DNA of 58,904 nt from the NCBI GenBank assembly GCA_016183225.1, contig JACPEZ010000047.1, positions 1-58,904 of the forward strand. Reading direction: 5' to 3'. Source of the stretch: Candidatus Daviesbacteria bacterium. Its GTDB lineage: Bacteria; Patescibacteriota; Microgenomatia; Daviesbacterales; UBA10151. A model generated the notes under the pieces. That model ran no database searches and was not told the origin of the DNA. It worked only from the letters and a program-made list of their open reading frames with translations. A program made the position numbers and the translations under genes. The stretch's first letter is position 1. The number at the start of each line of letters is the position of its first letter. Positions 3,997 to 52,456 of this stretch are shown in pieces.

Positions 3997-3998
3997 TA

Positions 3999-4259
3999 TC
4001 ACTTAAGGACCTCCCACTCGTCTGGGCTAATTGCTGGTTCATTTGGATCTTTATAATAAACCAATGTTCCGCGCAAAGACTGTAGTATAGCTTCTGGATC
4101 TTTTTCTTCCTGATAAGAAGTAACTTTAATAACCGGTTTGCCGGCATGGGTAATAATCAAAGGCTGTTTTTGGGTTTGAACCAGCCTTAAATACTCCAAA
4201 GCTTGGGCTTTAAATTGTGATTTGGAAACCTGTTGAATCTGTTGCATGACTATAGTCAT
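3999..4259 (-). CDS. Phd/YefM-type antitoxin
   Basis: Sequence MTIVMQQIQQVSKSQFKAQALEYLRLV..QPLIITHAGKPVIKVTSY matches the Phd/YefM pattern. The longer track ORF (to 4454) overlaps the L25 gene, so an internal ATG was chosen. Confidence 0.65.
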   Translation of the reverse strand: MTIVMQQIQQVSKSQFKAQALEYLRLVQTQKQPLIITHAGKPVIKVTSYQEEKDPEAILQSLRGTLVYYKDPNEPAISPDEWEVLK

Positions 4260-4332
4260 AGTACCATAGTCATATTGGTTTGTCAACCCCTCAAAATTTA
4301 GAATTCCCGCAAAATCACCGCAAATTAAACGC

Positions 4333-23210: not shown

Positions 23211-23264
23211 TTGATAGGGTAGTGAATAGCGTATAGAGAATAGGGTATAGTTGAATCGCAGCAC

Positions 23265-23282
23265 AACTATACGCTAAACGCT
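23265..23282. repeat. 18-bp direct repeat aactatacgctaaacgct (copy 1, overlaps the stop of the four-helix-bundle gene)
   Basis: Identical to 23667-23684. Embedded in heptamer-periodic tatacgc/taaacgc sequence. Confidence 0.85.
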
Positions 23283-23663
23283 ATTAACTAAACGCTTTAT
23301 AACTCCTCCTTTCTCTCTGTATACCATGACGTATAACATCTTGATGACTTCTACTAGTAATTCCTCCGATTTTCTAAAGCTCCCGGCTGGTGCCAACTTG
23401 AGCTCTTTAGAAATAATAAGTTGAGTATCTAATTCTAAAGCAGATCCATATGCTATTGAATAAAATTGTAAGTACTCTTTATGTGATCTTCTGGCGTATC
23501 CTTCAGCTATATTAGAAGGAATAGAGATAGCTGCTCTATGGATTTGAGAAATTATCACAAACTGTTCGTTTTTAGGGAATAAAACCGTTAATTTATAGAT
23601 CTCTTTTACAAGAGCGATCGATTTCTGCCAAACTATTAATTCTTTGTATGAATGTATCTGCAT
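23274..23663 (-). CDS. Four-helix-bundle protein (23S rRNA intervening-sequence protein / Avd family)
   Basis: YKELIVWQKS...FPKNEQF.IISQIHRAAISIPSNIAEGYARRS.KEYLQFYSIAYGSALELDTQL is the characteristic motif set of this family. Confidence 0.85.
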   Translation of the reverse strand: MQIHSYKELIVWQKSIALVKEIYKLTVLFPKNEQFVIISQIHRAAISIPSNIAEGYARRSHKEYLQFYSIAYGSALELDTQLIISKELKLAPAGSFRKSEELLVEVIKMLYVMVYREKGGVIKRLVNSV

Positions 23664-23666
23664 ATT

Positions 23667-23684
23667 AACTATACGCTAAACGCT
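23667..23684. repeat. 18-bp direct repeat aactatacgctaaacgct (copy 2, 3 nt upstream of the four-helix-bundle ATG)
   Basis: Identical to 23265-23282. A 12-bp inverted pair agcgtatagaga (23228-23239) / tctctatacgct (23687-23698) brackets both copies. Confidence 0.85.
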
Positions 23685-23770
23685 TCTCTCTATACGCTTT
23701 GTTATACATCGTGAAAATACTATAGTCTAGGGGTACAAAATAGGTCAAAAAATATACAATATACAGTATA

Positions 23771-25420: not shown

Positions 25421-25447
25421 TTGACATCACTAGATTTATGGTATAAT
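25421..25447 (+). promoter_or_regulatory. Promoter-like element (TTGACA, extended -10 TGgTATAAT) upstream of abiEi
   Basis: ttgaca at 25421-25426 and tataat at 25442-25447 preceded by tgg. The spacer is only 15 nt. Confidence 0.4.
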
Positions 25448-25456
25448 ATTTACTGG

Positions 25457-26062
25457 ATGTCGGAAAAATTCCGTCTTCCGATAGAGAATATGAATAAAGA
25501 TTTCATACTACAACTTTACAGCCGGCAAGAAACAGTTTTTACTGTAGATGAAATTTCATTGCTTTTCCCCAATATCCCGTATAAAAACATACGAGATCGC
25601 TTATATTATTTTTCTAAGGTAGGGAAGATAAAAAGACTTCGCCGGGGAGTATATGCCAAGAATAAATATAATCCCTTGGAAGCTGCTAATAAGCTTTACA
25701 CTCCTTCATACATTAGCCTAGAAACAGTTTTACAAAAAGAGGGGATAGTTTTCCAGTCATATGAAAGTATTTTTACAGTATCATATGTCTCAAGAGAAAT
25801 AATTCTAAATGGGCAGCAGATTATTTATAGGAAGATCAAAGAAGAAGTGTTGGTAAATAGAGCAGGGGTAGAGGAACAGGATGGGTACGAGATTGCCACA
25901 AAAGAGCGAGCTTTTCTAGATGCTGTGTTTTTGTATAAAAACTATCACTTTGATAATCTAACCTCTTTAGACTGGGATAAGATAGCATCGCTTAAAAATA
26001 TTTACCCAACTATTGCGTTTAAAAAAAGGATAGAGGAGTATCAAATCAATGCTCAACATTAA
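25457..26062 (+). CDS. abiEi: AbiEi-family antitoxin/transcriptional regulator (type IV TA)
   Basis: Winged-helix-like N-terminus followed by RRGVYAK...YISLETVLQKEGIV, typical of AbiEi. Overlaps the downstream AbiEii gene by 14 nt. Confidence 0.7.
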   Translation: MSEKFRLPIENMNKDFILQLYSRQETVFTVDEISLLFPNIPYKNIRDRLYYFSKVGKIKRLRRGVYAKNKYNPLEAANKLYTPSYISLETVLQKEGIVFQSYESIFTVSYVSREIILNGQQIIYRKIKEEVLVNRAGVEEQDGYEIATKERAFLDAVFLYKNYHFDNLTSLDWDKIASLKNIYPTIAFKKRIEEYQINAQH

Positions 26063-26741
26063 CATACACAAAGTTACGCTAATTAAAATTTTAAAAGAAA
26101 TCTACTCTGATACTGATCTTAGAACTCTTCTTGGATTTAAAGGAGGTACGGCAGCAATGTTATTTTATGGGTTGCCCCGTTTCTCGGTTGACCTGGATTT
26201 TGATTTACTAAATGAGGATAAAAAGAAGCTGGTTTTTGAGAAACTGCAAGATATTTTATCTAAATTCGGCAAATCAGATGAGCCTTTTGAAAAATACCAC
26301 ACATTGTTTTTTCTGCTTAACTACCAAAAAAGAGAAAGAAACTTAAAAGTAGAAGTTTCCAAGCGTGAGTCTACTGCCGCATATGAAATAAAACACTATT
26401 TAGGCATACCAATGATGGTGATGCAAAAGGCAGATATGACAGCAGGGAAGTTAGCGGCGCTTTTGACACGAAAGAGATTTGCTGCCAGAGATATTTTCGA
26501 CCTATGGTTTTTCTTAAAAGAAAACTTTCCAATCAATGAGCAAATTGTCAAAGATAAAACCGGGCTTTCTTTGCAAAAAGCACTTCATAGGGCGGAAGCA
26601 ATAGTAAAAGACCTTAAAGGAACGCAATTGTTATCTGGTTTGGGTGATCTGTTGGATCCAAAGCAAAGAGTTTGGGTAAAACAAAAACTGCAGGAAGAAT
26701 TGTTATTTCTCTTGAGATTTTACATTGCATCAATAAATTAG
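26049..26741 (+). CDS. abiEii: AbiEii/AbiGii-family nucleotidyltransferase toxin
   Basis: LGFKGGTAAMLFYGLPRFSVDLDFD matches the family's GG(T/S)...R.S.D(I/L)DF core. Confidence 0.8.
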   Translation: MLNINIHKVTLIKILKEIYSDTDLRTLLGFKGGTAAMLFYGLPRFSVDLDFDLLNEDKKKLVFEKLQDILSKFGKSDEPFEKYHTLFFLLNYQKRERNLKVEVSKRESTAAYEIKHYLGIPMMVMQKADMTAGKLAALLTRKRFAARDIFDLWFFLKENFPINEQIVKDKTGLSLQKALHRAEAIVKDLKGTQLLSGLGDLLDPKQRVWVKQKLQEELLFLLRFYIASIN

Positions 26742-34379: not shown

Positions 34380-34736
34380 TCAAGTGGATTTTAACAAACC
34401 GCTTAAAACTCGAGCTGTTTCCATGTGTATTTCTAATATTTTCGCATAATCATCTTTACCAGTAAACTGTCTCTCATAAGCAAAATCAATAAAGAATTCT
34501 AATTCTGTTAAAGACCCCATTGCCATTTGGTAGAAATGCTTTCTATCCTTTAAGCCTCTTCTGCTATATCCTTCTGCAATATTAGCACAAACCGATAAAG
34601 CAGCCCGGCGCATTTGTGAAATCATTCCAAAAAGCTCATCTTTAGGGAATTTTGCTGTGATATCGTAAATTAAATGTGCCAACAAATTAGCTTTCTGCCA
34701 AGCAATGAGTTTTCTGTAGCCGCTATTGTTTCTCAT
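34380..34736 (-). CDS. Four-helix-bundle protein (23S rRNA intervening-sequence protein / Avd family), second copy
   Basis: YRKLIAWQKA...FPKDELFGMISQMRRAALSVCANIAEGYSRRG.KDRKHFYQMAMGSLTELEFF. The ATG at 34736 makes an ATGA overlap with the upstream gene stop. Confidence 0.85.
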   Translation of the reverse strand: MRNNSGYRKLIAWQKANLLAHLIYDITAKFPKDELFGMISQMRRAALSVCANIAEGYSRRGLKDRKHFYQMAMGSLTELEFFIDFAYERQFTGKDDYAKILEIHMETARVLSGLLKST

Positions 34737-35812
34737 ACTTGGGCCGAAGTTAATCTTTCTCTGCCTGCCTGCAAAGTTTCCGGATTGCCTGCAGAAGTTA
34801 ACATCTGAAATGCCCCCAAAAGCATCATCAAAAATGCCAAACCCCCTCCAATGCCCAGGCCAAATTTTAATACATCCTGCACCAAATCCGCAGGATTGGT
34901 ATGTATACACCCAATGGCTGTTTTTATGGCCGGTTTTGCCGGGTCACATTCTAAACCTTTTCCAGAGGTACAAATTCCCAATGCGGCATCCTGCGTAGTG
35001 CAACCCTTTTTAAGGGTACCTGTATCGAGTACTCTGCCAGGTTTATCCGGTGTGCCTACAGTAAACTCCAAGGGGCAAAGGGGTTGTCCAAAACCTCCAA
35101 AGGGTCCAATATTGAGCCGGCGAATATCAATTTTGTGACGCCCCACTGTTTTCCAGGAAGTAGGTATTGCTATGGGACTAAAGTCTGGAGTATCCAAGTA
35201 AAGCAAAAGCTTTGGATCAAAGGAATCGTATGGTGTTGTTATGACACCGTCAAAAAACAATCTAAATTGCGACGTGATGGTGCTGGTTAAATTTTTCCCG
35301 GAAATCGTTAGGTTGGTGGCAGATGTAATTCCTTCTGTAGGTTTAAGCTCCAACTTACAAAGATTGTCGTTATCAACCACATCATAATAAGCCAGGCATT
35401 GGGGTACAGCCTGATTGTTGATAAGTGCGTGTAACACAATCTGTTTATTTTTTCCTTCGGAAAACTGACAGGGAGTAGTGCCGGGAATAAAGATTGACCG
35501 GTCAAGATCGTAAAAGATTTCATCTTCATTGAGCTTGGAGGCTGTGAATGTATAATCATTGACTCGCTGACCGGGGGCGAATGGCAGATCCCGGCAGTTA
35601 AATTCCATCCTGTAGATAGTACTGGCATTGCCTTGGCCCACATTGATAATAAACCTGGCTTTGCGCGTTTCATCTGTTAGAGGTTTACCGTCTGCCGGCT
35701 CTATCTTTACTGGACAGCTTGCTTGGGGGGCGGCTGATATTGAAGAAACACTGATAAGAAAAAATACAAAGAAGAATAATAACAGAAGCAGGATTTTAAT
35801 TATTTTCCCCAT
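34733..35812 (-). CDS. Secreted large-ectodomain protein ending in a half T4SS-pilin module (adhesin-pilin fusion)
   Basis: Signal peptide MGKIIKILLLLLFFFVFFLISVSSISA|AP, a ~290-aa Cys-containing ectodomain, then GGGLAFLMMLLGAFQMLTSAGNPETLQAGRERLTSA. That is pilin TM1 plus loop, but the ORF stops before a second TM. Confidence 0.6.
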   Translation of the reverse strand: MGKIIKILLLLLFFFVFFLISVSSISAAPQASCPVKIEPADGKPLTDETRKARFIINVGQGNASTIYRMEFNCRDLPFAPGQRVNDYTFTASKLNEDEIFYDLDRSIFIPGTTPCQFSEGKNKQIVLHALINNQAVPQCLAYYDVVDNDNLCKLELKPTEGITSATNLTISGKNLTSTITSQFRLFFDGVITTPYDSFDPKLLLYLDTPDFSPIAIPTSWKTVGRHKIDIRRLNIGPFGGFGQPLCPLEFTVGTPDKPGRVLDTGTLKKGCTTQDAALGICTSGKGLECDPAKPAIKTAIGCIHTNPADLVQDVLKFGLGIGGGLAFLMMLLGAFQMLTSAGNPETLQAGRERLTSAQV

Positions 35813-35828
35813 ATTTTTACCTTAGCAC
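35803..35828. repeat. Direct repeat copy A (ttttccccatatttttaccttagcac), the native leader and start of the adhesin gene
   Basis: The reverse complement contains gtgctaaggtaaaaatATGGGGAAAA. The ATG is the start of the 34733-35812 CDS. Confidence 0.9.
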
Positions 35829-35880
35829 GGTTTTTGAAAAGAGTCCAGTTTCTTTGAGGAAAATGTGTTAAAATATTGAT

Positions 35881-36081
35881 ATGTGGGTATGGGATTACAA
35901 AATCAATAAAGCTTGGAAGCCAATAACAGATGACGGCTGGCAATGGTTTCTGGTGCGGAAAATTAATTATGGAGATTTTGCAGGCATTACAAAGGATATG
36001 TTAAAAAAATATTTTCCCAAAATTAAAAAATGGCTTGATTCGGGTAAGAAAACAATGATTGAAAATTTTCTACAGAGATGA
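35881..36081 (+). CDS. Small Trp-rich hypothetical protein (66 aa), possible partner of the downstream nucleotidyltransferase
   Basis: ATG ORF overlapping the downstream gene by 4 nt (ATGA). No motif recognised. Confidence 0.35.
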   Translation: MWVWDYKINKAWKPITDDGWQWFLVRKINYGDFAGITKDMLKKYFPKIKKWLDSGKKTMIENFLQR

Positions 36082-36752
36082 AGTTGACAACCGGTCAGAA
36101 AATAGCTTTGGATCTTATTGCCAAATCACCTATCACGAATAAGTTTTATTGGACAGGCGGCACCTTGCTGGCTTATTATTACTTCCAACATAGAAAATCG
36201 GAAGATTTGGATTTTTTTACCAAAGAAGAATTCTCGTTTGATGAAGTCAATCAATTTGTCCAAAATCTTAAAGGTAAAGCAGGGTTCAAAAGCGTGGAGT
36301 ACCAGAAAATTTTTGATAGGCATAAATTTCTGTTAAAAAATAAGGAAATTTTGAAAGTGGAATTTGTTTACTATAATCATCATAGAAATACATTGGGCAG
36401 AAGAAAGAAGGTTTTAGGGGTGTGGGCAGACTCTTTAAAAGACATTGCTGCCAATAAAACTTTGGCATATTTTGACAGAAATGAACCTAAAGACTTATTT
36501 GATATTTATTTTTTGTTAACAAAAGGCAGATTTACTTCAAAGCAGTTACTCGGATTGGTTTTTAAAAAATTCGGGGTGAAGCTTCCTGAAAGTTTGTTTT
36601 GGTCGGAGAGCTTTAAAAATATTAAACTGCTTTTTACAATAAAACCCCTGCTTCTGGAAAAAAATAACAAGGAACAGATGAGGCTACTAAATACTATTGA
36701 CAATTATTTTAAAGATCAATCAGCGCAATTCTTAAGAGATACTTTATCTTAA
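36078..36752 (+). CDS. AbiEii/DUF1814-like nucleotidyltransferase (second, divergent copy)
   Basis: FYWTGGTLLAYYYFQHRKSEDLDFF reproduces the GGT...R.S.DLDF core seen in 26049-26741. Confidence 0.65.
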   Translation: MKLTTGQKIALDLIAKSPITNKFYWTGGTLLAYYYFQHRKSEDLDFFTKEEFSFDEVNQFVQNLKGKAGFKSVEYQKIFDRHKFLLKNKEILKVEFVYYNHHRNTLGRRKKVLGVWADSLKDIAANKTLAYFDRNEPKDLFDIYFLLTKGRFTSKQLLGLVFKKFGVKLPESLFWSESFKNIKLLFTIKPLLLEKNNKEQMRLLNTIDNYFKDQSAQFLRDTLS

Positions 36753-36763
36753 GATAATAAGAT

Positions 36764-36808
36764 TTTTCCCCATATTTTTACCTTAGCACAAATTTAATTT
36801 AGGGTCTA
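36764..36808. repeat. Direct repeat copy B (45 bp)
   Basis: ttttccccatatttttaccttagcacaaatttaatttagggtcta is identical to copy C. Contains the stop codon (cta) of ATPase 1. Confidence 0.9.
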
Positions 36809-37945
36809 GTTGTTTAAGAATTGTTCAAAATTATTCGGATAGATAATCTTATAAGTACTGTTTTTATAAACAGAGGTAAATTCTTTCCCCGCTGAAGTCA
36901 GTGTGGTTTTTTTGGGTGTGAACTTAAACTCAAAGGCTGTAAGCCTGCCTTCTTTTTCCTCGATTAAATCAATCTCCTTTTGGTCATAAGTGCGCCAAAA
37001 GTATAGATTAGCAACCTTTCTGCTGTTTTCAAGGGTTTTTAATCTTTCTATTACGCACAGGTTTTCAAACATTACTCCTTTATCTGTGCGCAAATTTAAT
37101 GGGTTAAAATTACGTATTAGAGCATTACGGAGACCCAAATCTACAAAGTAATATTTGGAGGTTTTAGAAATTTCTTTGCGTAAATTACGGCTGAACCCCC
37201 GAATATTAATAATTACAAACATTTTTCCCAAAAGGTCTAAATACTTCTCAACTATAATTTTCGAAAGCGATAAATTTTGCGCCAGTTCCTGAATGGATAC
37301 CTCGCTGCCGATTTGTAAAGCAAGAAGAGATAGCAAATCAATAATTTTTTTAGGTTTACGTATTGTTTCAAAGCTTAAGACATCTTTATACAAGTAATTA
37401 TTGATCAGTTCGTTAAGGTAAAGCTCTTTTTCCGCTTCAGAGGAAAGAGTGATAACCTTTGGGTATAGGCCAAACCGCAAAAATTCCCCGATTTTGGCAG
37501 GTACTGTTTCAAGTATATTTTTTGGCACTTCCGGTACTCCGAGAGGGTAGAGTGTAAAAGTGACAGACCTGCCTGTTAAAGGCTCGTTGATTTTATTTGC
37601 CAAATCAAAGGATGAAGAGCCTGAAGCTATAATGTGTATTTTTAGCGAGTCGAAAAGCAATTTTAGAACCAGACCAATGTTTTGAATTCTTTGAGCTTCG
37701 TCTATGACTAGCAGTTTATTTGCGCCAACGATCTTTTTTAACCGGTCCAAATCAGCTATACCAAACAATTCTTGCGTACGAAGATCGTCACCGGTAAAAA
37801 TTAAACACGTTGATTTAATTCCGTTTAATAATTGATTAATTAGGGTTGTTTTACCGGATTGTCTGGGTCCGTAAATTATAATTATTTTAGGCTCACCCAT
37901 GAGCTGTTTTTGAATTCTGGTAAGTATACTTCTATCAATTAGCAT
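36806..37945 (-). CDS. AAA-type ATPase with C-terminal DUF4143 (PD-(D/E)xK-like) domain, copy 1
   Basis: Walker A GPRQSGKTTL, Walker B LLVIDEAQ, C-terminal FWRTYDQKEIDLIEEK...FEFKF. Start set to ATG MLIDRS, preceded by TTGACA-17-TATACT. Confidence 0.8.
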   Translation of the reverse strand: MLIDRSILTRIQKQLMGEPKIIIIYGPRQSGKTTLINQLLNGIKSTCLIFTGDDLRTQELFGIADLDRLKKIVGANKLLVIDEAQRIQNIGLVLKLLFDSLKIHIIASGSSSFDLANKINEPLTGRSVTFTLYPLGVPEVPKNILETVPAKIGEFLRFGLYPKVITLSSEAEKELYLNELINNYLYKDVLSFETIRKPKKIIDLLSLLALQIGSEVSIQELAQNLSLSKIIVEKYLDLLGKMFVIINIRGFSRNLRKEISKTSKYYFVDLGLRNALIRNFNPLNLRTDKGVMFENLCVIERLKTLENSRKVANLYFWRTYDQKEIDLIEEKEGRLTAFEFKFTPKKTTLTSAGKEFTSVYKNSTYKIIYPNNFEQFLNN

Positions 37946-38052
37946 AAATTGAGTATAGTATAGTTTACTTAATTTGTCAAGAGGGAGAATATGGTAGCCC
38001 CGAACATTATTTTGGGAAAGTTTTAACAATATCCGTTTCTAATAATACCATA

Positions 38053-38097
38053 TTTTCCCCATATTTTTACCTTAGCACAAATTTAATTTAGGGTCTA
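38053..38097. repeat. Direct repeat copy C (45 bp)
   Basis: Identical to copy B. Lies just 3' of ATPase 2 (stop at 38102-38104). Confidence 0.9.
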
Positions 38098-38101
38098 CTT
38101 C

Positions 38102-39355
38102 TTAAAATTTTTTATCAATCAATTCAAAGAATGGAAGAATATAGATTTTGGTTTTATCTATCAAGGTCTTGAAATTTCTGCCAAGATGTACGACATATCC
38201 TTTTCCAGGTTTATACTTTGCCGCAAAATTTCTGAAAGAACGCGTAAGTTCAATTTTTTTCATCTTTGAATATTTTATCTCAATTGGCGTAATCTCCAGT
38301 CCTTTTTCCAAGACAAAGTCAACTTCTGCCTGATCGCGCGTCCTCCAAAAGTGGATTTGGGTGAGTGCTGACTCAAGCTGCATCCGCAGCATATTAAAAA
38401 CAAAGTTCTCAAATAGATGCCCGCTTAATGGAGACGGGATTCGGGGCAATCCGAAAAGCCCCAGGAGCCAATTACGAAGTCCGATGTCGTAAAAATAATA
38501 TATTGGCGCTTTGGTAATTTCTTTTCTGGTGTTTCTGTAATATGGTGTGACCTTTTTAAGGATAAAAGTTTGCTCCAAATACCACAAATAATGCTTGACA
38601 GTTTTTTCGTCAAGATCAACGGTTGACGAAAGCTCTGTTAAATTAATAAGACTGCCAATCTGTGAGGCAATGATTTTCAAAAGATTACCTAAAGCCTCTG
38701 TTTTTTCCAGGCGCAGCAGGTCTCTTAAATCTCTATCTATATAACTTTGGTAAATCTCCTGCATTTCGCTTTGTTTCAAAGAGACGGAGTCTGATAAGAC
38801 TACCCGCGGGTATCCTCCAAAAACCATGTATTCAGAAAGTAAATGTTCGGTTTTGGCTTTTTCCACAATAAAAAAATCATTTAACTTGTCTTCATAGTGA
38901 TAATTGGTTTTATAATTGACAAATTCCTCAAAACTTATCGGTTCAATAATAAAGAGTTGTTTCCTTCCTGCCATCGACTCCGGTATTTTTGCTTTAAGCT
39001 CAAGGCTTCCTGAACCTGAAATAATAAATTTATGCGGTAGGCGCATATCAAAGATGCCTTTTAAGAAAAGCCCGGCATTTTCTTTGCGCTGAATTTCATC
39101 AATAAAAACAAATGCTTTTTCCCTGCCTGCCACAAGATTGATATACGAAAGCAAGGCGGCTTGCGAGGCGACCTTCAATGCATCCTCCTCATTATCCAGG
39201 TTTAACCAGATTGTTTTTTTACTCTCGTTTGCCAACATCTCTTGCAAAATCTGCATTAAATAGGTTTTTCCCACCTGTCTGGGACCAGTAATAATAGTCA
39301 TCTGGTCTGAGAAAAGATGGCGCACGAGCAGGGCAAGTATTTTTCTTTTAATCAT
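38102..39355 (-). CDS. AAA-type ATPase with C-terminal DUF4143 (PD-(D/E)xK-like) domain, copy 2
   Basis: Walker A GPRQVGKTYL, Walker B FVFIDEIQ, C-terminal FWRTRDQAEVDFVLEK...IEIKYS. Confidence 0.8.
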   Translation of the reverse strand: MIKRKILALLVRHLFSDQMTIITGPRQVGKTYLMQILQEMLANESKKTIWLNLDNEEDALKVASQAALLSYINLVAGREKAFVFIDEIQRKENAGLFLKGIFDMRLPHKFIISGSGSLELKAKIPESMAGRKQLFIIEPISFEEFVNYKTNYHYEDKLNDFFIVEKAKTEHLLSEYMVFGGYPRVVLSDSVSLKQSEMQEIYQSYIDRDLRDLLRLEKTEALGNLLKIIASQIGSLINLTELSSTVDLDEKTVKHYLWYLEQTFILKKVTPYYRNTRKEITKAPIYYFYDIGLRNWLLGLFGLPRIPSPLSGHLFENFVFNMLRMQLESALTQIHFWRTRDQAEVDFVLEKGLEITPIEIKYSKMKKIELTRSFRNFAAKYKPGKGYVVHLGRNFKTLIDKTKIYILPFFELIDKKF

Positions 39356-39433
39356 ATATTCCTATTTTAGTACCTTTTTTCCAGGAGTCAAGTAACGAAA
39401 TAGTCGGGTAAAATATCAAAACCGAATTGTCCA

Positions 39434-39458
39434 TTATTTTTACCTTAGCACAAATTAG
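39434..39458. repeat. Direct repeat copy D (partial core atttttaccttagcacaaatt)
   Basis: Shares the ~21-nt core with copies A-C. Lies between ATPase 2 and the divergent SpoIID-like gene. Confidence 0.75.
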
Positions 39459-39472
39459 ACGGCAATGATAAA

Positions 39473-41203
39473 ATGAAGAATATGTTTAAAAGTAAGTTTA
39501 TCCTGGCATTTGCGATCTTTTTTTTCTTGCTACTTGCTACTTACTACTTACTACCAACAGTCCGGGCCGATGAAATTGAGGATTTGCAAAGGCAGATTGA
39601 TGAGCTGAATAAGGCCCGGGAGCTGTCTGTTAAAGCTACCACCCCCCTGGAAGGGCAACTGTCCTCTTTACAAAGGCAGCTTGCCCAGATTCAATCAAGC
39701 ATTAACGCTCTTTCCGCAAATATAAAAACAAAACAGCAGGAGCTGGATTTAAGGGAGGAAAAACTGGCTTTGCAGCAGGCTCTTTTAGATAAACGGGTCC
39801 GCTCCTATTACATCCGCTCGTACCTCGCAGACCCTTTACTGGTTATCCTGTCCTCTTTTCAGTCGGGCGATCTTTTCCGGGAGCTGTCTTTCCGCCAGTC
39901 TGTGGCCCGGGAAGACCGCCGGATCATTGCCAGCGTTACCGGGGAAATGCTGGATTTACTGACTCAAAAAGACAAGCTGGAAAAAGATAAAGTCAAGTTG
40001 GCTTCTTTTCAGGTAGAGGTTGACAAAAATGCCAAGTTTTTAGGGGGAGAAATAACAACAGCCAAAAAATATCAGGCCGAACTGTCCACCAAAATTGCCC
40101 GGTTATCTGCCCGCCAGCAGGCCATTATTGCTCAAAGACAAGCCTCTTTAAATTTACCCACTTCTTTGGGAGCCGGGCCGCTTTTTTGTACGGATGACCG
40201 AAAGCTTGATCCGGGTTTTTCCCCGGCTTTTGCCTTTTTTACCTATGGCATTCCCCACCGGGTGGGCATGAACCAGTATGGCGCCTACGGCCGGGCCAAC
40301 GCCGGAGCAAACCATGAGGATATTTTAAGAGCCTATTTTCAAGACTTTTCTTTCGAACAAAAAGGCAATATCAATATTTCGGTTCAGGGATACGGCTCAA
40401 TGCCTTTGGAAACTTATCTGTTGGGCATTTATGAAATGCCTGATTCCTTCCCCATGGAGGCTTTAAAAGCGCAGGTCATTGCCGCCCGCTCCTATGCCCT
40501 TTCGTACACCGGCAGCGGATCAAAAGAAATCTGCACCAGCCAGCAGTGCCAGGTTTACAAAGGCGGCAATAAAGGCGGCAACTGGGAGCAGGCAGTCAAA
40601 TCTACCGATGGCAAAACCATGATTTCCGGCGGCTCGCCGGTGACGGCCTGGTATTCTTCCACTGACGGAGGATATACTTTTTCTTCATCCGATGTGGGCT
40701 GGTCTGCCCGCTCTTTTACCAAAAGAGTGCGAGATACCAACGGAGATATCTCCAGCTTTGCCGATTTACAGGCCAAAGCCTATGACCGGGATTCCCCCTG
40801 TTTTTATGCTGCCCAGGGAGTAAGATCTCAATATGCCAAGAGCGCCTGGCTCAAATCAGAAGAGGTGGCTGATATTGCCAATGTCATTATGCTAATCAAA
40901 GCAGATTCCGGAGTGTCATCCCATCTTTATCAAACCGATAAACCCAACCCGGAAGGAGGAGAAACCTGGAATGAAGATCGAGTCAGACAGGAGCTTCGCT
41001 CAAGAGGCAGCAGTCCTTTTAACAGTGTTTCATCAGTTTCAGTGTCGGCGGATTTTTCCTCCGGGCAGATTACTTCAGTGACAGTGTCGGGTGACCGGGG
41101 TGCGGAAACTTTTAACGGCAGCGAGTTTAAAAATTTCTTTAATCTGCGTGCCCCGGCCAATATCCAGATTGTGGGACCATTATTTTCTGTAGAACAGAAA
41201 TAA
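39473..41203 (+). CDS. SpoIID/LytB-domain cell-wall protein with N-terminal coiled coil
   Basis: Signal peptide, long Q/L-rich coiled coil, then MNQYGAYGRA, AQVIAARSYAL, CTSQQCQVYKG and AWYSSTDGGYT, the SpoIID motif set. Confidence 0.8.
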   Translation: MKNMFKSKFILAFAIFFFLLLATYYLLPTVRADEIEDLQRQIDELNKARELSVKATTPLEGQLSSLQRQLAQIQSSINALSANIKTKQQELDLREEKLALQQALLDKRVRSYYIRSYLADPLLVILSSFQSGDLFRELSFRQSVAREDRRIIASVTGEMLDLLTQKDKLEKDKVKLASFQVEVDKNAKFLGGEITTAKKYQAELSTKIARLSARQQAIIAQRQASLNLPTSLGAGPLFCTDDRKLDPGFSPAFAFFTYGIPHRVGMNQYGAYGRANAGANHEDILRAYFQDFSFEQKGNINISVQGYGSMPLETYLLGIYEMPDSFPMEALKAQVIAARSYALSYTGSGSKEICTSQQCQVYKGGNKGGNWEQAVKSTDGKTMISGGSPVTAWYSSTDGGYTFSSSDVGWSARSFTKRVRDTNGDISSFADLQAKAYDRDSPCFYAAQGVRSQYAKSAWLKSEEVADIANVIMLIKADSGVSSHLYQTDKPNPEGGETWNEDRVRQELRSRGSSPFNSVSSVSVSADFSSGQITSVTVSGDRGAETFNGSEFKNFFNLRAPANIQIVGPLFSVEQK

Positions 41204-41303
41204 ATTCGAAGCACGAAATCCGAAATACTAAACAAATTCTAAATTTTGAAAATTCGAATTTCAAAAATTGTTTCGAATTTCGAAATTGGAATTTCGAATT
41301 TAG
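41204..41303. repeat. Heptamer-periodic 'cgaaat/ttcgaa' element (sibling of 21351-21484)
   Basis: ttcgaag/cacgaaa/tccgaaa/tactaaa/caaattc ... gaatttc/gaaattg/gaatttc. The 24-nt string aattcgaagcacgaaatccgaaat matches the reverse complement of 21443-21476. Confidence 0.8.
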
Positions 41304-42114: not shown

Positions 42115-43904
42115 GATTAAAAATAGCACAGGTAATCGGCTTAAATACGGACCAGCAGGCGGCCCAAGTAGTTTCACAGATACAGGATGCCGAGAATGCT
42201 TTTTTAGCTTTACTCCGGCTTAGTTGCGATGACGCTTTTACCAAAGGCAGACAGGCTCTGTCAGACCTGTCGGATTTTTACTTTGATTTTGAAGGCAGTC
42301 CGGCCCAGAAACTGACTGCCGCTTTTGCCGAAGGAGTCAAAAAATTTTCCGGCGAAGGTGAATACGACTTGTGTTTGGCTGCAGTATCGGGAAAAGTGCT
42401 GTATCTTACGGGACAGGGCCGGGTGGAAGTTTATTTAAAAAGAGAGGATAAGTTATCGCCGCTTTTGTCCACCGGTTCCGCCGGCGCTTTGATCTCGGGA
42501 TTTTTGGAAGAAGGGGACAAGTTAATGCTGGCAAGCAAAAGTTTGTCCGATTTGCTGGGTGAGGATTTGTCCAAATCAATGGATTTGCCTAAAGACGCAT
42601 GGGAAGAGGAAATGAGTTCCAAAGTGGCCCGGGCGGAGAGCGGGGAGGGAGGGCTGGCCGGGCTTTTTGCGCGGATAGATCAGCAGGATCAGGAAGATCA
42701 AAAGGAAGAAGAGTCTGTTATCAGCCTTCCCGGTCTACAGGAAAAAGAAATTATTCCTCCCCGGGCCAGGGCAATTCTGGCAAAACTTCTCGGATTTTTT
42801 CCCAAAAGCGGCCGGGGCAGATTGATTTTGGCTGTAGTTTTAATTATTATTATTGCTTTGGGAACAGGGTATCAGTATAAATTAGGTCGCGACAGGGAAA
42901 GGAATCTTCAATTCGATCAAGCCTTACAAGCTGCCAAAGATGATTTTAATGCTGCCAAAGGTTTAAGCAGCTTAAATCCGGCCGAGGCCAAGATTAAACT
43001 GGATACTGCCAAAGATAAAATTGGCCAAGCGCTGGTTCTAAAACCCAAAGACAGCGGCGCCCGGGATTTAAAAAACCAGATTGAACAGGAATCATCCTCT
43101 ATTTTGCAACAGGCGCAGGTAGCTGATTTTCCTTTGTTTTTGGATCTGGATCTGGTCAAAAAAGACTTTAAAGCTTATGCGTTAAGTTTTTCGGCCGGCA
43201 AAATACTGGTTTTGGATAGAACGCAATATTCCCTGGCTGCTATTGACGCTGCTAAAAAGAGCAATCAAATTCTGGCCGGGAAAAGTCAGCTGGGGGAAGC
43301 GCAACTATCTTCATTGAATGGCAATCTGGCTTTTAGCTACTCTGCTGACAAAGGATTGGTGCGTACCGATTTAACCAATCAAAAACAAACCCAGGTGGCT
43401 AAAGTTGACGAGGAATGGGGGAATATTGCAGACATGAGCGGCTTTGCCGGCAATGTTTATCTTTTGGATTCAACCAAGAATCAAGTCTGGAAGTATTTGC
43501 CAACTTCCGAGGGCTATTCCGGTAAAAGAGATTATCTTACTCAAAACACCAAGGCGGATTTTACCGGCAGTTTGCGGATGCAGATTGAATCTTCAATTTA
43601 TGTGTTGAAACAGGGAGGGGAGATACTGCGATTTACCAGGGGGGAGAAGGATAATTTTTCCTATTCAGGTTTACCCTCACCGGTCAAAGACCCCAAAAGT
43701 TTCTTTGTTTCCTCCGATACTGATGATTTGTATTTGCTGGATTCTGGCAACGCCAGACTTTTGGTCTTGACTAAAACCGGAGCCTATAAAGCCCAGTATC
43801 AAAGCGAGCGCTTTAGAGAGTTTTCCGACCTGGTAGTGGATGAAAAAGCTAAAAAGGTCTATTTGCTGGAAGGCAGTAAAATCTATACAATGGATCTCAA
43901 ATAA
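42111..43904 (+). CDS. Hypothetical single-pass membrane protein (597 aa)
   Basis: Cytoplasmic N-domain, TM (LILAVVLIIIIALG), beta-rich C-terminal ectodomain. ATGA overlap with the upstream gene. Confidence 0.5.
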   Translation: MRLKIAQVIGLNTDQQAAQVVSQIQDAENAFLALLRLSCDDAFTKGRQALSDLSDFYFDFEGSPAQKLTAAFAEGVKKFSGEGEYDLCLAAVSGKVLYLTGQGRVEVYLKREDKLSPLLSTGSAGALISGFLEEGDKLMLASKSLSDLLGEDLSKSMDLPKDAWEEEMSSKVARAESGEGGLAGLFARIDQQDQEDQKEEESVISLPGLQEKEIIPPRARAILAKLLGFFPKSGRGRLILAVVLIIIIALGTGYQYKLGRDRERNLQFDQALQAAKDDFNAAKGLSSLNPAEAKIKLDTAKDKIGQALVLKPKDSGARDLKNQIEQESSSILQQAQVADFPLFLDLDLVKKDFKAYALSFSAGKILVLDRTQYSLAAIDAAKKSNQILAGKSQLGEAQLSSLNGNLAFSYSADKGLVRTDLTNQKQTQVAKVDEEWGNIADMSGFAGNVYLLDSTKNQVWKYLPTSEGYSGKRDYLTQNTKADFTGSLRMQIESSIYVLKQGGEILRFTRGEKDNFSYSGLPSPVKDPKSFFVSSDTDDLYLLDSGNARLLVLTKTGAYKAQYQSERFREFSDLVVDEKAKKVYLLEGSKIYTMDLK

Positions 43905-43905
43905 G

Positions 43906-43972
43906 AGTCTAGTCGCTAGAGTCTAGAATCTAGTAAAATTAACCTTGACTCTTGACTCTTGACTCTAGTCAC
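43906..43972. repeat. Bipartite heptamer element (ctag-type x4, AT spacer, ttgactc x3-4), sibling of 424-490 in reverse orientation
   Basis: agtctag/tcgctag/agtctag/aatctag, then taaaattaacc, then ttgactc x3 + tagtcac. Exactly fills the gap between the upstream stop (43904) and the smpB ATG (43974). Confidence 0.85.
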
Positions 43973-44833: not shown

Positions 44834-45535
44834 GTGAACCTCATTTTAGATCTGCTTTTTCCCAAAAAATGCATTGGTTGCGGACAGCCAAATTCCTATT
44901 TTTGCCAAAGATGCATGGCCGATATCTTACAAACCGACCTGATTTGTCCGCAGTGCGGTAATTTATCAATTGGCGGATTAACCCATCCCGGCTGCGAAAG
45001 AACTTTTAGCCTGGACGGGTTGTGGAGTTTGGGCATTTATGCCGGCCCTTTAAAAAAAGCCATTCAAAGATTAAAATATGAGCCTGCTTTGGTGCGGGAT
45101 TTTGCTCCGGTTTTGGCAGATATCATTGTTTACTACTGGAAAAAATACTCGCCTCATCTTTTTGATCTGGTTAGAAAAAATAAAAATCAGTGGGTGGTTG
45201 TACCGGTGCCGCTGCATTGGTTTAGGGAAAATAAAAGGGGTTTTAATCAGGCAAAACTACTAGGACAAATTTTATCCAAAAAATTAGGTTTGGTTTACTG
45301 TGAGGCCTTAAAACGCACTCGCTATACCCGCTCCCAAGTAAAATTAAAAGGGGAGCAGAGAAGAAAAAATATTTATGGCGCTTTTGCAATTTCTTCTAAC
45401 TATACGCTAGACGCTAAACCCTATGTACTACTTATAGATGATGTCTGGACTACCGGCTCTACCATGAGAGAATGCTGTTACGAATTAAAACGCGCCGGCG
45501 CCCAAAAGGTTTGGGCTATGACACTGGCCAGGTAA
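44834..45535 (+). CDS. comFC: ComF-family phosphoribosyltransferase-like competence protein
   Basis: N-terminal zinc-finger cysteines (FPKKCIGCG...CQRC...CPQCG) and a C-terminal PRTase motif VLLIDDVWTTGST. GTG start. Confidence 0.8.
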   Translation: MNLILDLLFPKKCIGCGQPNSYFCQRCMADILQTDLICPQCGNLSIGGLTHPGCERTFSLDGLWSLGIYAGPLKKAIQRLKYEPALVRDFAPVLADIIVYYWKKYSPHLFDLVRKNKNQWVVVPVPLHWFRENKRGFNQAKLLGQILSKKLGLVYCEALKRTRYTRSQVKLKGEQRRKNIYGAFAISSNYTLDAKPYVLLIDDVWTTGSTMRECCYELKRAGAQKVWAMTLAR

Positions 45536-45578: not shown

Positions 45579-46568
45579 ATGGATAGATTAGCATTCAATC
45601 ACGATGGGTTAAGAGTTTTTATTAAGCAAGTGCAAGGAAAATTAGGATTAGATTCTGACGGGCTAGCCAAATTAATCGGTCTTTCTGGGAGGACTATCAG
45701 AGATTGGAAAAGAGAAAAGTTTAATCCTTCTAAGGATGCTATCTTAAAATTAAGCAAATTGTCTCAAATACCGTTACCTCCTCATAAAATTTTACCTCAG
45801 TTTTGGCATAATGGAATTGCAGGTAAGTTGGGAGGCAAAAAGACCTTTAAATTATACGGTTTGTTAGGCAATAAGGAGTCTAGAAGTAAAGGAGGCAAGA
45901 TATCTTGGTTTAAGAGACGGGAAAACCCAGAACTTTGGACAAAGTATGTTAAAACTTTTAAGATTCCTGAAGAATCAGAGGATTTAGCAGAATTATTTGG
46001 AATTATCCTTGGAGATGGAGGATTAACTCGCTATCAGTGTGTAATTTATTTAAATAGTGATACAGACCAGGATTTTGCTGTATATGTTCAGAATTTAATC
46101 GAGAAATTATTTGATTCTAAACCTAGTATTTATAAATCAAGGAATGATCATGTATGGAAAGTTAGTATTGGTGGAGTTGATTTGGTAGAATATCTAAACT
46201 CTAAAGGTTTATCTTTAGGGAATAAAGTACTTTTACAAGTAGGTGTTCCAGAATGGGTTTGGACCAAAGAAGGATATATTAAGGCTTGTATCCGAGGATT
46301 GGTAGATACTGACGGATGTTTTAGTGTACATACATATAGTGTAAATGGGAAAAGATATTCCTATCCAAAACTGGCCTTTTCTAATAGATCTGAACCTATT
46401 TTGCAATTTGTATATCAGGGGTTAAAACAACTAGGCTTTAATCCTAAAAGGACTTATGAATATGGTGTATGGTTGCATAATCAGCAAGAAGTTAGAAAAT
46501 ATTTGCAAGAGATAGGAACTAGGAACTATAAACCGTCGGTTAAGAAAATATTGGGAGGAGTCGCATAG
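45579..46568 (+). CDS. Free-standing LAGLIDADG homing-endonuclease-like protein with N-terminal HTH
   Basis: Two LAGLIDADG-type motifs (LAELFGIILGDGGL and IRGLVDTDGCF) and an N-terminal HTH-like GLSGRTIRDWKREK. The 3' end overlaps tRNA-Ser by 15 nt. Confidence 0.7.
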   Translation: MDRLAFNHDGLRVFIKQVQGKLGLDSDGLAKLIGLSGRTIRDWKREKFNPSKDAILKLSKLSQIPLPPHKILPQFWHNGIAGKLGGKKTFKLYGLLGNKESRSKGGKISWFKRRENPELWTKYVKTFKIPEESEDLAELFGIILGDGGLTRYQCVIYLNSDTDQDFAVYVQNLIEKLFDSKPSIYKSRNDHVWKVSIGGVDLVEYLNSKGLSLGNKVLLQVGVPEWVWTKEGYIKACIRGLVDTDGCFSVHTYSVNGKRYSYPKLAFSNRSEPILQFVYQGLKQLGFNPKRTYEYGVWLHNQQEVRKYLQEIGTRNYKPSVKKILGGVA

Positions 46569-50200: not shown

Positions 50201-50332
50201 GGCAAATATTGGCCAGAACATAAGACAGATACTTTTTCTGGCCTAAGAAAGCCCGCTGAGGTTTTTCTTGCTTTAAGCCTCTCTCTGCTGTAATATCTGG
50301 TGCAACTGCCCTCTAAATTACTATTAACGAGA

Positions 50333-52456
50333 ATGGATATTCAACTTTTTATGTCTATTTTTAAGGGGCGTCATGACGTTTATGCTAAACGGTGGGAAAA
50401 AGATGGTAAAAACGGCTACAGTCCTGCATATAGGGTGGATTGGAGTAAGTTTGCAGCTTTTAAAGCCAGGGGCGGTAAGTTTTCAGATTATCCCCACAAA
50501 ACCCCATTACCTCTAACATTAGAAATTATTCAAAGTCATTTAGAAGGTAAGGAGATAGTAGGGATTTATCCTTTATTATCAGACAATACCTCCTACTTTA
50601 TAGCAGCTGACTTTGATGGTGAGAATTGGCCGGAGGAAATAAGGGCATTTTCTAAAGTCTGTGCCAGATACAGTATTCCAACCTATTTAGAAAGATCCAG
50701 ATCTGGTAATGGTGGTCATGTCTGGATTTTCTTTGAAGACAAATACCCTGCATATAAATCAAGAAAAATTATTTTAGAAATAATCAGAGAAGCACTTGAG
50801 CTTTCAGTTTTTGACCGAGAAGTTAGTTTTGATAGATTATTTCCAAACCAAGATTATCACACAAATAAGGGATTTGGGAATCTAATTGCCTTACCACTAC
50901 AGGGAGACTCATTAAAAAATAGTAATTCTGGTTTTCTTGATCCTGAAACGCTGGAAATTTTACCTGATCAGTGGAACTTTATTAAAAATATTGAACCTGT
51001 TTCTCTGGATATACTTGATAAACTTTATCTCGAGTTAGTAGAGGAACTGGCAAAAATAAGCAACACTCAGAAAGCAACTAAAGGCACATTAAATGTCATT
51101 ATCCAAAACCAGATTTACCTAAATAAAAGTCAGCTAACTCTTGTAATGGTAAAATTCCTGAGAGAAAATTTAAACTTTTCAAATCAGGAGTACTTTGTTA
51201 AACAAAAAATTGGCATTAGTACCTATAAAACCGAAAAGTATTTCAGGCTGATTGAGGAAACTAATGATTCTGTAACTATTCCCAGAGGCTTTTTAAATCA
51301 ACTTATTGAATTTTGTGAAGAGAATAAGATCCCCTTTGAAATTATTGATAAGCGGGAAAAATTAGCTGATGTTAAGTTTAAATCAAAGATTTCACTTAGA
51401 GATTATCAGAATATAGCTGTTACTGAGGCTATGAATAAGGATTACGGAGTAATTGTTGCTCCATCAGGATCGGGAAAGACTGTTATTGGACTGGAATTGA
51501 TAGCCAGAAGATTACAACCAGCACTGATTCTGGTTCACCGAAAGCAGCTATTAGATCAGTGGGTGGAGAGAATAGAGTCTTTTTTAGGAATCCCTAAAAA
51601 GGATATTGGTCAAATTTCAGGAAATAAAAAGAAACCCGGAGATCAAATTACTGTGGCTATGGTTCAAAGTCTACTAAAAATGAATAACCTTGATGATATA
51701 AGTAAGAGTTTTGGCACTATTCTCCTCGATGAATGCCATCATGTACCGGCCAGAACTTTTAGAGAACTAATTTCAAACCTGAACTCTTATTACCTTTATG
51801 GTTTAACAGCAGCTCCCCAAAGAAAATATAACGATGAGAAGCTAATTTATTACTATCTCGGTGATGAAATTGTAACCATAGATCCAGATCAACAAAAAGG
51901 TTCTTTAACTGATAAAATTACAGTCCATATTCGTAGCACTGTTTTATCTGTACCATTTGATTATAAAACTGATGTATTTGAAGTCATTTCAAAAATACTT
52001 ATTTTTGATAGTGCCAGAAATTTATTGATCTGCCAGGATGTTTTACAGGAAGTTCTAAAGGGAAGGAAAATTCTTATCCTGACAGAGCGTAAAGAGCACG
52101 TTGAAGTATTAAATCTTTATTTAAAATCCCACGCTGAAATTATTACTTTAACTGGTGAGGATTCACAAAGAAAGCGTAGGCTTAAAATTGAACAAATTAA
52201 ATCAGGTAATTTTCAGATTCTTATAACAACTGGCCAACTGTTTGGTGAAGGCATGGATTTTTCTGCCTTCAACTGTTTATTTTTAACCTATCCATTTTCG
52301 TTTGAGGGAAAACTGATTCAGTATATTGGAAGAATCCAGAGGTCTAAGAGCAAACAGATAATTTATGATTACAGGGATCAGAATGTGGCTTTTCTGGAAC
52401 GTTTGTTCCAAAAAAGGTTAAAATATTATCAGAAGCGTGGCTGGGTAGAAAAATAG
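50333..52456 (+). CDS. Archaeo-eukaryotic primase (PrimPol)-like domain fused to an SF2 (ResIII/DEAD-like) helicase
   Basis: N-terminus: FKGRHDVYAKRWE, IAADFDGENW, SRSGNGGHVWIFF, FGNLIALPLQG (AEP motifs I-III-like). C-terminus: Walker A APSGSGKT, LLDECHH, and motif VI-like GRIQR. Confidence 0.75.
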   Translation: MDIQLFMSIFKGRHDVYAKRWEKDGKNGYSPAYRVDWSKFAAFKARGGKFSDYPHKTPLPLTLEIIQSHLEGKEIVGIYPLLSDNTSYFIAADFDGENWPEEIRAFSKVCARYSIPTYLERSRSGNGGHVWIFFEDKYPAYKSRKIILEIIREALELSVFDREVSFDRLFPNQDYHTNKGFGNLIALPLQGDSLKNSNSGFLDPETLEILPDQWNFIKNIEPVSLDILDKLYLELVEELAKISNTQKATKGTLNVIIQNQIYLNKSQLTLVMVKFLRENLNFSNQEYFVKQKIGISTYKTEKYFRLIEETNDSVTIPRGFLNQLIEFCEENKIPFEIIDKREKLADVKFKSKISLRDYQNIAVTEAMNKDYGVIVAPSGSGKTVIGLELIARRLQPALILVHRKQLLDQWVERIESFLGIPKKDIGQISGNKKKPGDQITVAMVQSLLKMNNLDDISKSFGTILLDECHHVPARTFRELISNLNSYYLYGLTAAPQRKYNDEKLIYYYLGDEIVTIDPDQQKGSLTDKITVHIRSTVLSVPFDYKTDVFEVISKILIFDSARNLLICQDVLQEVLKGRKILILTERKEHVEVLNLYLKSHAEIITLTGEDSQRKRRLKIEQIKSGNFQILITTGQLFGEGMDFSAFNCLFLTYPFSFEGKLIQYIGRIQRSKSKQIIYDYRDQNVAFLERLFQKRLKYYQKRGWVEK

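Follow-up and report, generated by a model that had tools for sequence, protein, structure and literature searches.

The contig JACPEZ010000047.1 (58.9 kb, hereafter the window) is chromosomal DNA from a metagenome-assembled genome (MAG) of Candidatus Daviesbacteria. It encodes dnaA, dnaN, rnpA and yidC, together with a type IV secretion system (T4SS)-like cluster that includes TraG/VirB4-like and PrgI-like genes, and a VirB2-like pilin array (Pfam). A T4SS/pilin cluster of the same kind has been described for Patescibacteria as essential and origin-proximal (PMC12102498). Some 22 kb away from oriC, beside the chromosomal T4SS and pilin genes, lies a slot between an adhesin-pilin gene (minus strand) and a divergent gene with a SpoIID/LytB domain (plus strand), and this slot holds three small gene cassettes delimited by four copies of a short direct repeat, here named R (Table 1). 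The cumulative GC-skew of the window reaches its minimum at about 14-16 kb, next to dnaA, placing the minus-strand pilin operon head-on to replication.

A 26-nt string (TTTTCCCCATATTTTTACCTTAGCAC) is present without mismatches at 35803-35828, 36764-36789 and 38053-38078, and was not matched in 100 shuffles even with 3 mismatches allowed. From 36764 and 38053, the second and third copies are identical over 45 nt. The fourth copy is represented by a 22-nt core (TATTTTTACCTTAGCACAAATT) at 39435-39456; aligned to relatives it extends to the limits given in Table 1, and includes its own CAT (minus-strand ATG) at 39432-39434. With up to 2 mismatches, the 15-nt core TTTTTACCTTAGCAC is found at these four places only in the window, and CTTAGCAC is likewise confined there to R, the right half of R (TTAGGGTCTAG) being no more frequent in the window than expected by chance when 2 mismatches are allowed. 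Read on the minus strand, the repeat (GTGCTAAGGTAAAAATATGGGGAAAA) ends in ATGGGGAAAA, the start of the open reading frame (ORF) 34733-35812 (ATG at 35812), and the copies lying further upstream are decapitated adhesin-pilin starts: the copy-2 stub translates as MGKNLIILR followed by a stop, and that of copy 3 (ATGGGGAAAATATGGTATTATTAG) stops after 7 codons. The -35 position of R1 is now taken by the end of the AbiEii unit (TGGACT), and the TAG within the -35 box of R2 terminates the ATPase 1 reading frame. A minus-strand ORF of 28 codons begins at the ATG of R4 (39348-39434; MDNSVLIFYPTISLLDSWKKGTKIGIYD, then a stop), the stop of which overlaps the start region of ATPase 2; this ORF is not conserved in the related contig L008.

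Outside the window, 252 kb of Daviesbacteria DNA contains TG[CG]TAAG[GC]T-N5-8-ATG in this slot only, plus once upstream of another pilin gene, and TAGACCCTAA inside R only, plus one R remnant at the junction of ATPases X and 2 in L008. Scanning GTDB genomes and JGI metagenomes with a 20-nt core returned this locus in relatives only (L001, L008 and L009), and the remaining seven matches are unrelated chance matches. A generic repeat scattered over unrelated loci, a case that the original prediction had named among its refutations, is ruled out by the mismatch searches of the window and the 252 kb of related DNA, which place R in this slot only. Two pattern scans of IMG/VR for a viral attP gave nothing, or chance matches inside coding sequence.

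An alignment of 23 R copies (11 slots in all, ten of them from relatives) shows a near-invariant TG[C/G]TAAG[G/C]T, apart from a few degenerate copies, and a spacer that varies in sequence. The layout is a -35 element TAGACC, 17-18 nt, an extended -10, 6-8 variable nt, ATG, and 3-12 nt of the pilin ORF. Most cassette-associated copies contain (C)TAGACCCTAA or a 1-nt variant of it, which puts TAGACC 17-18 nt upstream of TAAGGT. The sigma-70 extended -10 pattern (TGn plus TAnnnT, optionally with a -35 at 17±1, and a start about 6-8 nt downstream) is kept in nearly all 23 copies. Judged by its sequence, R is the predicted core promoter of the adhesin-pilin gene itself together with the start of that gene. 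The pilin mRNA is probably leaderless, since the start codon sits where transcription should begin, and the own promoters of ATPases 1 and 2 share a near-leaderless style (6 and 8 nt before the ATG). On the plus strand, bases of R4 read as TTAGCA-18-TAAAAT with an upstream TG (39445-39474), a putative promoter of the SpoIID gene, so that R overlaps the -35 (TTAGCA) of this divergent promoter. The repeat had been described earlier as leader plus start codon of the adhesin gene; the start codon stands, and the supposed leader is replaced by a predicted core promoter that overlaps the SpoIID -35. Single-strand folding of R copies gave -0.4 to 0 kcal/mol (z +0.8 to +1.7), i.e., no fold.

Domains were assigned by a Pfam scan of about 53 window ORFs, which lie up to 56589 and represent nearly all non-overlapping ORFs of at least 100 aa. 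The units between the R copies are single genes or gene pairs of 0.9-1.3 kb, with a GC content of 34-39% against 42-45% nearby. AbiEii of cassette 1 was recognised by PF08843 (1.8e-18, Pfam) and by the AbiEii models of PADLOC; the 66-aa ORF has its own TGTTAAAAT-7-ATG, and its product carries no AbiEi domain (Pfam, PADLOC) and is only weakly similar to the 96-aa AbiEii partner of a related slot (L019). In AbiE systems (type IV TA, abortive infection) the nucleotidyltransferase is accompanied by an AbiEi antitoxin, a transcriptional regulator. The promoter of ATPase 1 (TTGACA-17-TATACT, 37980-37952) ends 6 nt before the ATG at 37945, and homology of this cassette to L008 and L009 stops at 37981-37984. 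The TAATAATACCATATTTT closing the filler that follows is a second, older start stub, also present between both ATPases in L008. ATPase 2 is preceded by TTGACT-16-TAAAAT (39391-39364), 8 nt before its ATG, and its cassette keeps its boundaries in L008/L001, where the nucleotide identity is 92-93%. Between ATPases 1 and 2 the identity is only 32%, yet the same 45 nt follows each; their origin by recent tandem duplication is ruled out by this low identity. The original prediction had listed the three exact copies of the 26-bp string, the 45-nt identity of the second and third, a fourth core near 39436, the decapitated starts, one self-contained unit per interval and the ATPase 1 promoter, and all of these were confirmed, none of the string matches being expected by chance.

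Table 1. Genes, cassettes and R copies of the pilin/SpoIID slot, in window positions.
Feature	Positions	Strand	Details
Adhesin-pilin gene	34733..35812	-	Variable N-terminal domain and VirB2-like T4SS pilin C-terminus; first gene of the pilin operon; source of R
R1, working copy	35803..35828	-	Extended -10 TGCTAAGGT (plus-strand 35819-35827), 6-nt spacer, ATG 35810-35812, first 10 nt of the ORF (7 past the ATG)
Cassette 1: 66-aa ORF and AbiEii nucleotidyltransferase	35829..36763	+	ORF 35881-36081; AbiEii 36078-36752
R2, full 45-nt copy	36764..36808	-	TAGACC-17-TGCTAAGGT-6-ATGGGGAAAA
Cassette 2: DUF4143/AAA_14 ATPase 1	36806..37984	-	Coding sequence 36806-37945 (Pfam, PADLOC)
68-nt filler between cassette 2 and R3	37985..38052	.	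Ends in TAATAATACCATATTTT
R3, full 45-nt copy	38053..38097	-	Same as R2; stub is a 7-codon ORF
Cassette 3: DUF4143/AAA_14 ATPase 2	38088..39412	-	Coding sequence 38102-39355 (Pfam, PADLOC)
R4, SpoIID-proximal copy	39431..39459	-	TGCTAAGGT-7-ATGG; stub differs
SpoIID/LytB-domain gene	39473..41203	+	Pfam PF08486; conserved right flank of the slot

The DUF4143 ATPases match the PADLOC model PDC-S01 over their full length (ATPase 1, 4e-136; ATPase 2, 9.8e-90; ATPase X of related slots, 7.2e-110; the ATPase of L014, 4.3e-87), and these four types have 22-36% mutual identity. DUF4143 is classed in the PD-(D/E)XK nuclease superfamily (PMC3424549), and the DUF4143 literature consulted gave this classification only. 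PDC-S01 is a phage-defence candidate family (AAA_14 plus DUF4143), and the DUF4143 ATPases here are probably defence genes. Proteins like ATPase 2, at 63-88% identity, occur in Curtiss-, Gottesman-, Roizman-, Ames- and Daviesbacteria and in one MAG labelled Actinobacteria, and those at 70-75% identity span several Microgenomates classes. Many of the genes lie on contigs barely exceeding the gene in length, which, with their wide distribution, suggests that the genes have spread widely by horizontal transfer and that repeats or strain differences often break contigs at their edges.

Ten other versions of the pilin(-)/SpoIID(+) slot, all from related Ca. Daviesbacteria, were located by a DNA-pattern scan and by way of SpoIID homologues (2566 at E <= 1e-50). 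Pfam annotation covered all of them but L001/L008 and L009, which were read at the ORF level only. Two of the ten are empty (L011/L012, with SpoIID at 86% amino acid identity, and L015-17), each consisting of 77 nt with one promoter-start module; such empty-site relatives are what the original prediction had proposed to look for. The other eight contain one to three unrelated cassettes, and seven of these have extra R copies. L014 has one DUF4143 ATPase, and BrnT-CopG cassettes occupy the slots of L018 and L025-28 (extra R in L018 and L025). L019 carries AbiEii with a 96-aa partner in the opposite orientation, 30% identical to the window AbiEii, and L022-24 a membrane-protein ORF plus YafQ with its antitoxin (extra R in L022, on one side of the YafQ unit). 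A 78-aa ORF, ATPase X and ATPase 1 are found in L009, and ATPases X, 2 and 1 in L008, which represents the same slot as L001. The exception is L013, where a MazE-PIN cassette has no second R. The L019 cassette has TGGACATTATCCAAAGCTTAGCAT[A/G]AGTAGGGCTAAAATG on either side, and that of L018 has ATTTTCCC(C)AT...ACCTTAGCACA on either side. The difference between L009 and L008 is exactly one cassette and one R. In the UBA9644 scaffold (L001), a run of 150 N (4377-4526) lies exactly inside an R copy and looks like a scaffolding gap caused by the repeat; the region is contiguous in the metagenome contig L008.

Some relatives have further features at R. On the minus strand of L022 (4502-4846), an uncalled 79-codon ORF containing two hydrophobic segments begins at the ATG of the second R, and a hydrophobic ORF of 37 aa comes after it; in this slot a cassette ORF seems, from its position, to take both promoter and start codon from R. 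The native promoter modules of L013 (9086-9130), L015 (9931-9965) and L025 (7150-7205) contain a quasi-palindrome with a perfect 9-bp stem (CCACAATTA...TAATTGTGG), lying between two direct GCTTA[C/G]CAC copies (folding z -2.7 to -4.0), and resemble the scar of a template switch or a mini-insertion at this core. Stop-rich words, TAG(G/A/C)GT(C/A/T)TAG (CCCTAA on the other strand), build intergenic stretches in the window (43902-43970, 23240-23300 and 45407-45424) and in L013 (9120-9165). Words of this family are similar to the -35 part of R (CTAGACCCTAA), from which ATPase 1, and apparently the L014 ATPase too, takes its TAG stop.

L008 has ATPases 1 and 2 in the reverse of their window order, with homology stopping at the same positions. 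Nucleotide identity between the two loci is 87% for ATPase 1 and 92-93% for ATPase 2, compared with 75-76% for SpoIID and 79-84% for the pilin operon. Some internal R copies bear the start stub or spacer of a foreign pilin lineage (L014 R2, L009 R3, L018 R2 and L025 R2), indicating that R travels with the cassettes. L014 R2 and L009 R3 carry ATGTCCAA, the host's own start being ATGGG, and the spacer of L018 R2 is a different one; of the L025 copies, R2 belongs to the L011 type and R1 to the hairpin-containing L015 type. The R pair of L018 shares only about 11 contiguous nt (ACCTTAGCACA), around a different spacer, and this is short for recombination of the RecA type. At least two unrelated events (W1 and L018 R1) have their junction on the pilin side immediately after GCAC(A). 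In Logan, contigs of at least four SRA runs match the window with 100% identity at 34742-36793 (pilin, R1, 66-aa ORF, AbiEii and 30 nt of R2), and contigs of several runs do so at 38068-41227 (31 nt of R3, ATPase 2, R4 and SpoIID). They break off within the 45-nt repeat, as would be expected of a true repeat exceeding the assembler k.

The reading favoured here, to which a probability of about 0.6 may be given, is that the slot is an integrase-less cassette-accretion hotspot with the promoter-plus-start module as its recombination joint. It draws on the repeat and its anatomy, the empty and differently filled sites, the constant cassette boundaries in different orders, the cassettes being more conserved than their flanks, and the lack of a recombinase in cis. 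The divergent pilin/SpoIID promoter region of about 77 nt would be an insertion hotspot in Ca. Daviesbacteria, to which small autonomous cassettes with their own promoters (toxin-antitoxin (TA) pairs and PDC-S01 DUF4143 ATPases) would be added singly, by recombination at R. Each addition would leave one more R copy, so that the pilin gene always retains a promoter and start, and the displaced copies would persist as decapitated starts. Recombination of R with R, in which a cassette and one R are excised as a circle and re-integrated at any R, could produce gain, loss and re-ordering. The cassettes would be passive cargo and the recombination activity would be supplied in trans. The first choice is a site-specific recombinase encoded elsewhere that would recognise the conserved -10 core (C/G)CTTAGCA(C/T), and is favoured because some R pairs share only about 11 contiguous nt and at least two junctions lie right after GCAC(A). 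The likeness of copies in the same genome would then be maintained by gene conversion. As an alternative to a trans-acting recombinase, the short homology could itself serve for recombination, and the variable duplication length, the quasi-palindromes of L013, L015 and L025 and the lack of a nearby recombinase would suit this too. The original prediction had put forward serial insertion at a single att-like site, which agrees with the empty sites, differing cassette numbers and contents, and re-ordered ATPase cassettes of the relatives. Its interpretation as a whole is partly supported; two mechanisms that it had offered, an integron-like stack and self-mobilising DUF4143 genes, are not supported (see below).

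Several points weigh against an accretion hotspot of this kind. Within a genome, the -35 to -10 part of R is closer to the host's copy than to the R of the same cassette in another genome, and is identical in R1-R3 of the window; this likeness points to in-situ duplication or gene conversion, which it fits as well as it does carried att sites. The duplicated length varies from about 14 to 45 nt, both ends shifting by several nt. A rule of n cassettes and n+1 R copies is not universal: the L013 cassette has no second R, and no clear R separates ATPase 1 from SpoIID in L008 and L009, where the two adjoin. The R2-ATPase 1-R3 joins come solely from the MAG assembly and from analogy with relatives. 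No circular or excised form was seen, the assemblies showing only contig breaks inside R. In agreement with the earlier remark that none is visible, no integrase, transposase or other recombinase domain was found in the scanned window ORFs (Pfam), and no integrase or transposase among the Pfam-annotated genes of related slots, making the enzyme a hypothetical one. Folding and sequence gave no inverted-repeat core in R of the kind usual for tyrosine recombinases, and its promoter activity is deduced from base sequence only.

A possible though considerably less probable account is in-situ duplication of the target without a dedicated recombinase, driven by stalled or broken replication forks at the head-on pilin promoter near oriC. 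A template switch into foreign or ectopic DNA, with return a few tens of nt behind the break, would yield an insert and a promoter-start duplication of variable length. The spread of duplication lengths, both breakpoints being scattered within -40 to +12 of the start, is in keeping with such a process, as are the R copies that within a genome mostly match the host's own promoter, the quasi-palindrome between core copies in L013, L015 and L025 (a typical template-switch scar), the position of the operon relative to the GC-skew minimum by dnaA, and the lack of a recombinase in cis. Against it, ATPases 1, 2 and X recur with identical ends in different orders and genomes, which indicates discrete units moving rather than independent copying. 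Several internal R copies derive from other pilin lineages, and the recurrent junction right after GCAC(A) is also at odds with it.

That the DUF4143 ATPase-nucleases are homing-like genes, cutting R and copying themselves in, is very unlikely. Their membership of the PD-(D/E)XK superfamily (PMC3424549), the presence of four different DUF4143 types in the slot in different genomes, and the 70-75% identity of ATPase-2-like proteins across Microgenomates classes would suit this idea, which the original prediction had raised. Self-homing is not supported, because TA cassettes share the site and DUF4143 genes located elsewhere are free of scars. AbiEii and BrnT-CopG cassettes, which lack DUF4143, have the same R scars (YafQ has R on one side, and MazE-PIN has no extra R). 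A relative of ATPase 2 (73% amino acid identity) occupies a different divergent slot in the T4SS cluster, flanked by the PrgI-like gene and a gene of 665 aa; it has the same own promoter and neither R nor a flanking repeat. Another DUF4143 gene, in L013 (14466-15626), has a conserved 603-aa gene on one side and smpB on the other, carries a TTGACA promoter of its own and lacks such flanks too; the window has only a 54-nt stop-rich spacer at this position (43905-43958). R is intact on both sides after insertion, unlike a homing site, and the family matches the defence-candidate model PDC-S01.

A classical integron, or a cluster of attC sites lacking an integron integrase (CALIN), would share with the slot an array of single-gene or gene-pair cassettes next to a promoter, with a repeated site between them, and TA cassettes with their own promoters occur in chromosomal integrons as well. 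This is at least as improbable as homing, and the integron-like stack of the original prediction is not upheld: there is no IntI or Phage_integrase domain in the window, R is about 45 nt without hairpin potential or a GTTRRRY/RYYYAAC core, cassettes with their own promoters lie in both orientations, and the repeat copies the start codon of a host gene. The remaining alternative, an assembly duplication or a common intergenic repeat, to which the Logan contig breaks inside the 45-nt repeat and the N-run in the R copy of L001 might point, is the least credible of all, considering the independently assembled contigs of several runs that are 100% identical to the window on either side of the breaks, the same kind of array in related genomes from other samples, and a repeat for which the database scans gave only this locus and chance matches.

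Among known systems, the slot resembles integrase-less accretion of cis-mobilizable elements (CIMEs) and genomic islands at an att site (PMC5704250), in which direct repeats of the end of a host gene bound the units, relatives have a single-copy empty site, units have no integrase of their own, and growth is by repeated integration at the same site, the duplicated segment restoring the target gene. It differs in that no integrase-bearing partner occurs in any slot examined, the units are of single-gene or gene-pair size, what is targeted is a protein gene's promoter and 5′ end rather than the 3′ end of a tRNA or protein gene, and the length of the identity segment varies. Regarding the features of an integrative array, repeats duplicating the target gene are present as R1-R4 and as R pairs or triplets in L008, L009, L014, L018, L019, L022 and L025, with L013 and the last cassette in L008 and L009 as exceptions; no cognate integrase was found, in a search limited to the window and the Pfam-annotated slot genes.

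Integrons and CALINs are alike in having a stack of small cassettes with a recurring site by a promoter, shuffled order, and cargo rich in TA and defence genes, but here there is no IntI, R is not a folded attC, the cassettes have their own promoters and both orientations, and the site is the promoter and start codon of a neighbouring gene. An IntI by attI is required for an integron and not for a CALIN, and integron cassettes are mostly promoterless and co-oriented. The Xer-dependent dif modules of Acinetobacter plasmids (PMC6449649, PMC13141974) are also small, often TA or accessory modules bounded by short sites. They encode no recombinase of their own (a host enzyme is assumed) and shuffle between replicons. 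R differs in being a direct repeat without two inverted 11-bp arms and a 6-bp spacer, chromosomal and located in a promoter, and neither a dif-like dyad nor an attC-like structure was detected in it by sequence or folding. The plasmid dif sites (pdif) are 28-bp XerC-spacer-XerD sites that alternate in orientation along the plasmid. Defence and TA hotspots between core genes similarly show varied cargo, sometimes none, between the same core pair, the cargo being lower in GC and more conserved than the flanks. They are usually explained by homologous recombination in the flanking genes, with no scar per cassette, whereas most cassettes here are bounded by a copy of the promoter-start module. As for transposons and insertion sequences, the window has no transposase domain, the cassette ends have no inverted repeats, and the duplication (about 14-45 nt) is not of fixed length. 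CIME accretion, integrons/CALINs and Xer-dif modules each fail on at least one defining feature tested. The slot is best described as an integrase-less hotspot of cassette accretion, set apart by a repeated joint made of a gene's promoter and start codon.

The adhesin-pilin gene of the window lacks 113 nt at its 3′ end (34741/34742) relative to the otherwise identical Logan contig L037. Its ORF ends in LTSAQV (359 aa) and abuts a four-helix-bundle gene at 34380-34739 (23S_rRNA_IVP/bAvd-like); the extra 113 nt of L037 encode the last transmembrane helix (full protein 384 aa) as well as a spacer rich in TCTCTAG. The shorter gene is either a strain-level variant or the product of a deletion in assembly. 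An exact-protein look-up of the window pilin gave nothing, probably because this copy is truncated. Its Pfam T4SS_pilin match is sub-threshold (E 0.0011), and the pilin assignment is supported by orthologues with recorded T4SS_pilin (PF18895) matches.

Other accessory genes lie among the core genes of the window, i.e., PIN with Phd/YefM (3610-4454), a second AbiEi/AbiEii pair (25421-26741), HTH-LAGLIDADG (45579-46568) and a TOTE-type AEP primase-helicase fusion (50300-52456), and no flanking direct repeats of at least 14 nt were found around these four. The only other accessory gene checked in the window that has flanking repeats is a 23S_rRNA_IVP four-helix-bundle gene (23274-23663), which sits in a divergent slot upstream of the PrgI-like gene between 34-nt direct repeats (AACTATACGCTAAACGCT..., 85% identical) at 23265-23298 and 23667-23700. 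In other Daviesbacteria (L029-34) the same slot contains a 105-aa ORF and a DUF4143 gene of the ATPase-2-like kind, and it has the look of a further variable site marked by a repeat scar.

The locus bears on the question of how defence and TA genes build up in chromosomal hotspots without an integrase or transposase. With scarred cassettes, empty, single and multiple states and varied orders among close relatives, the insertion chemistry becomes testable. At the sequence level, the pilin gene of a patescibacterial T4SS cluster appears to use an extended -10 promoter and is probably leaderless. The DUF4143 ATPases in these genomes are argued to be cargo, probably for defence, and not self-mobile, and variation between strains has a focus beside the T4SS/pilin cluster. 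A bolder and rather doubtful proposal is that R is the recombination site, both docking site and boundary, of an undescribed cassette-capture platform of the candidate phyla radiation (CPR), operated by a recombinase in trans or by a recombinase-free process involving the open promoter complex or head-on replication conflict. If so, the seeding and shuffling of TA and defence islands without mobile-element genes would become traceable, and captured ORFs in at least one relative (L022) would gain a ready-made leaderless start.

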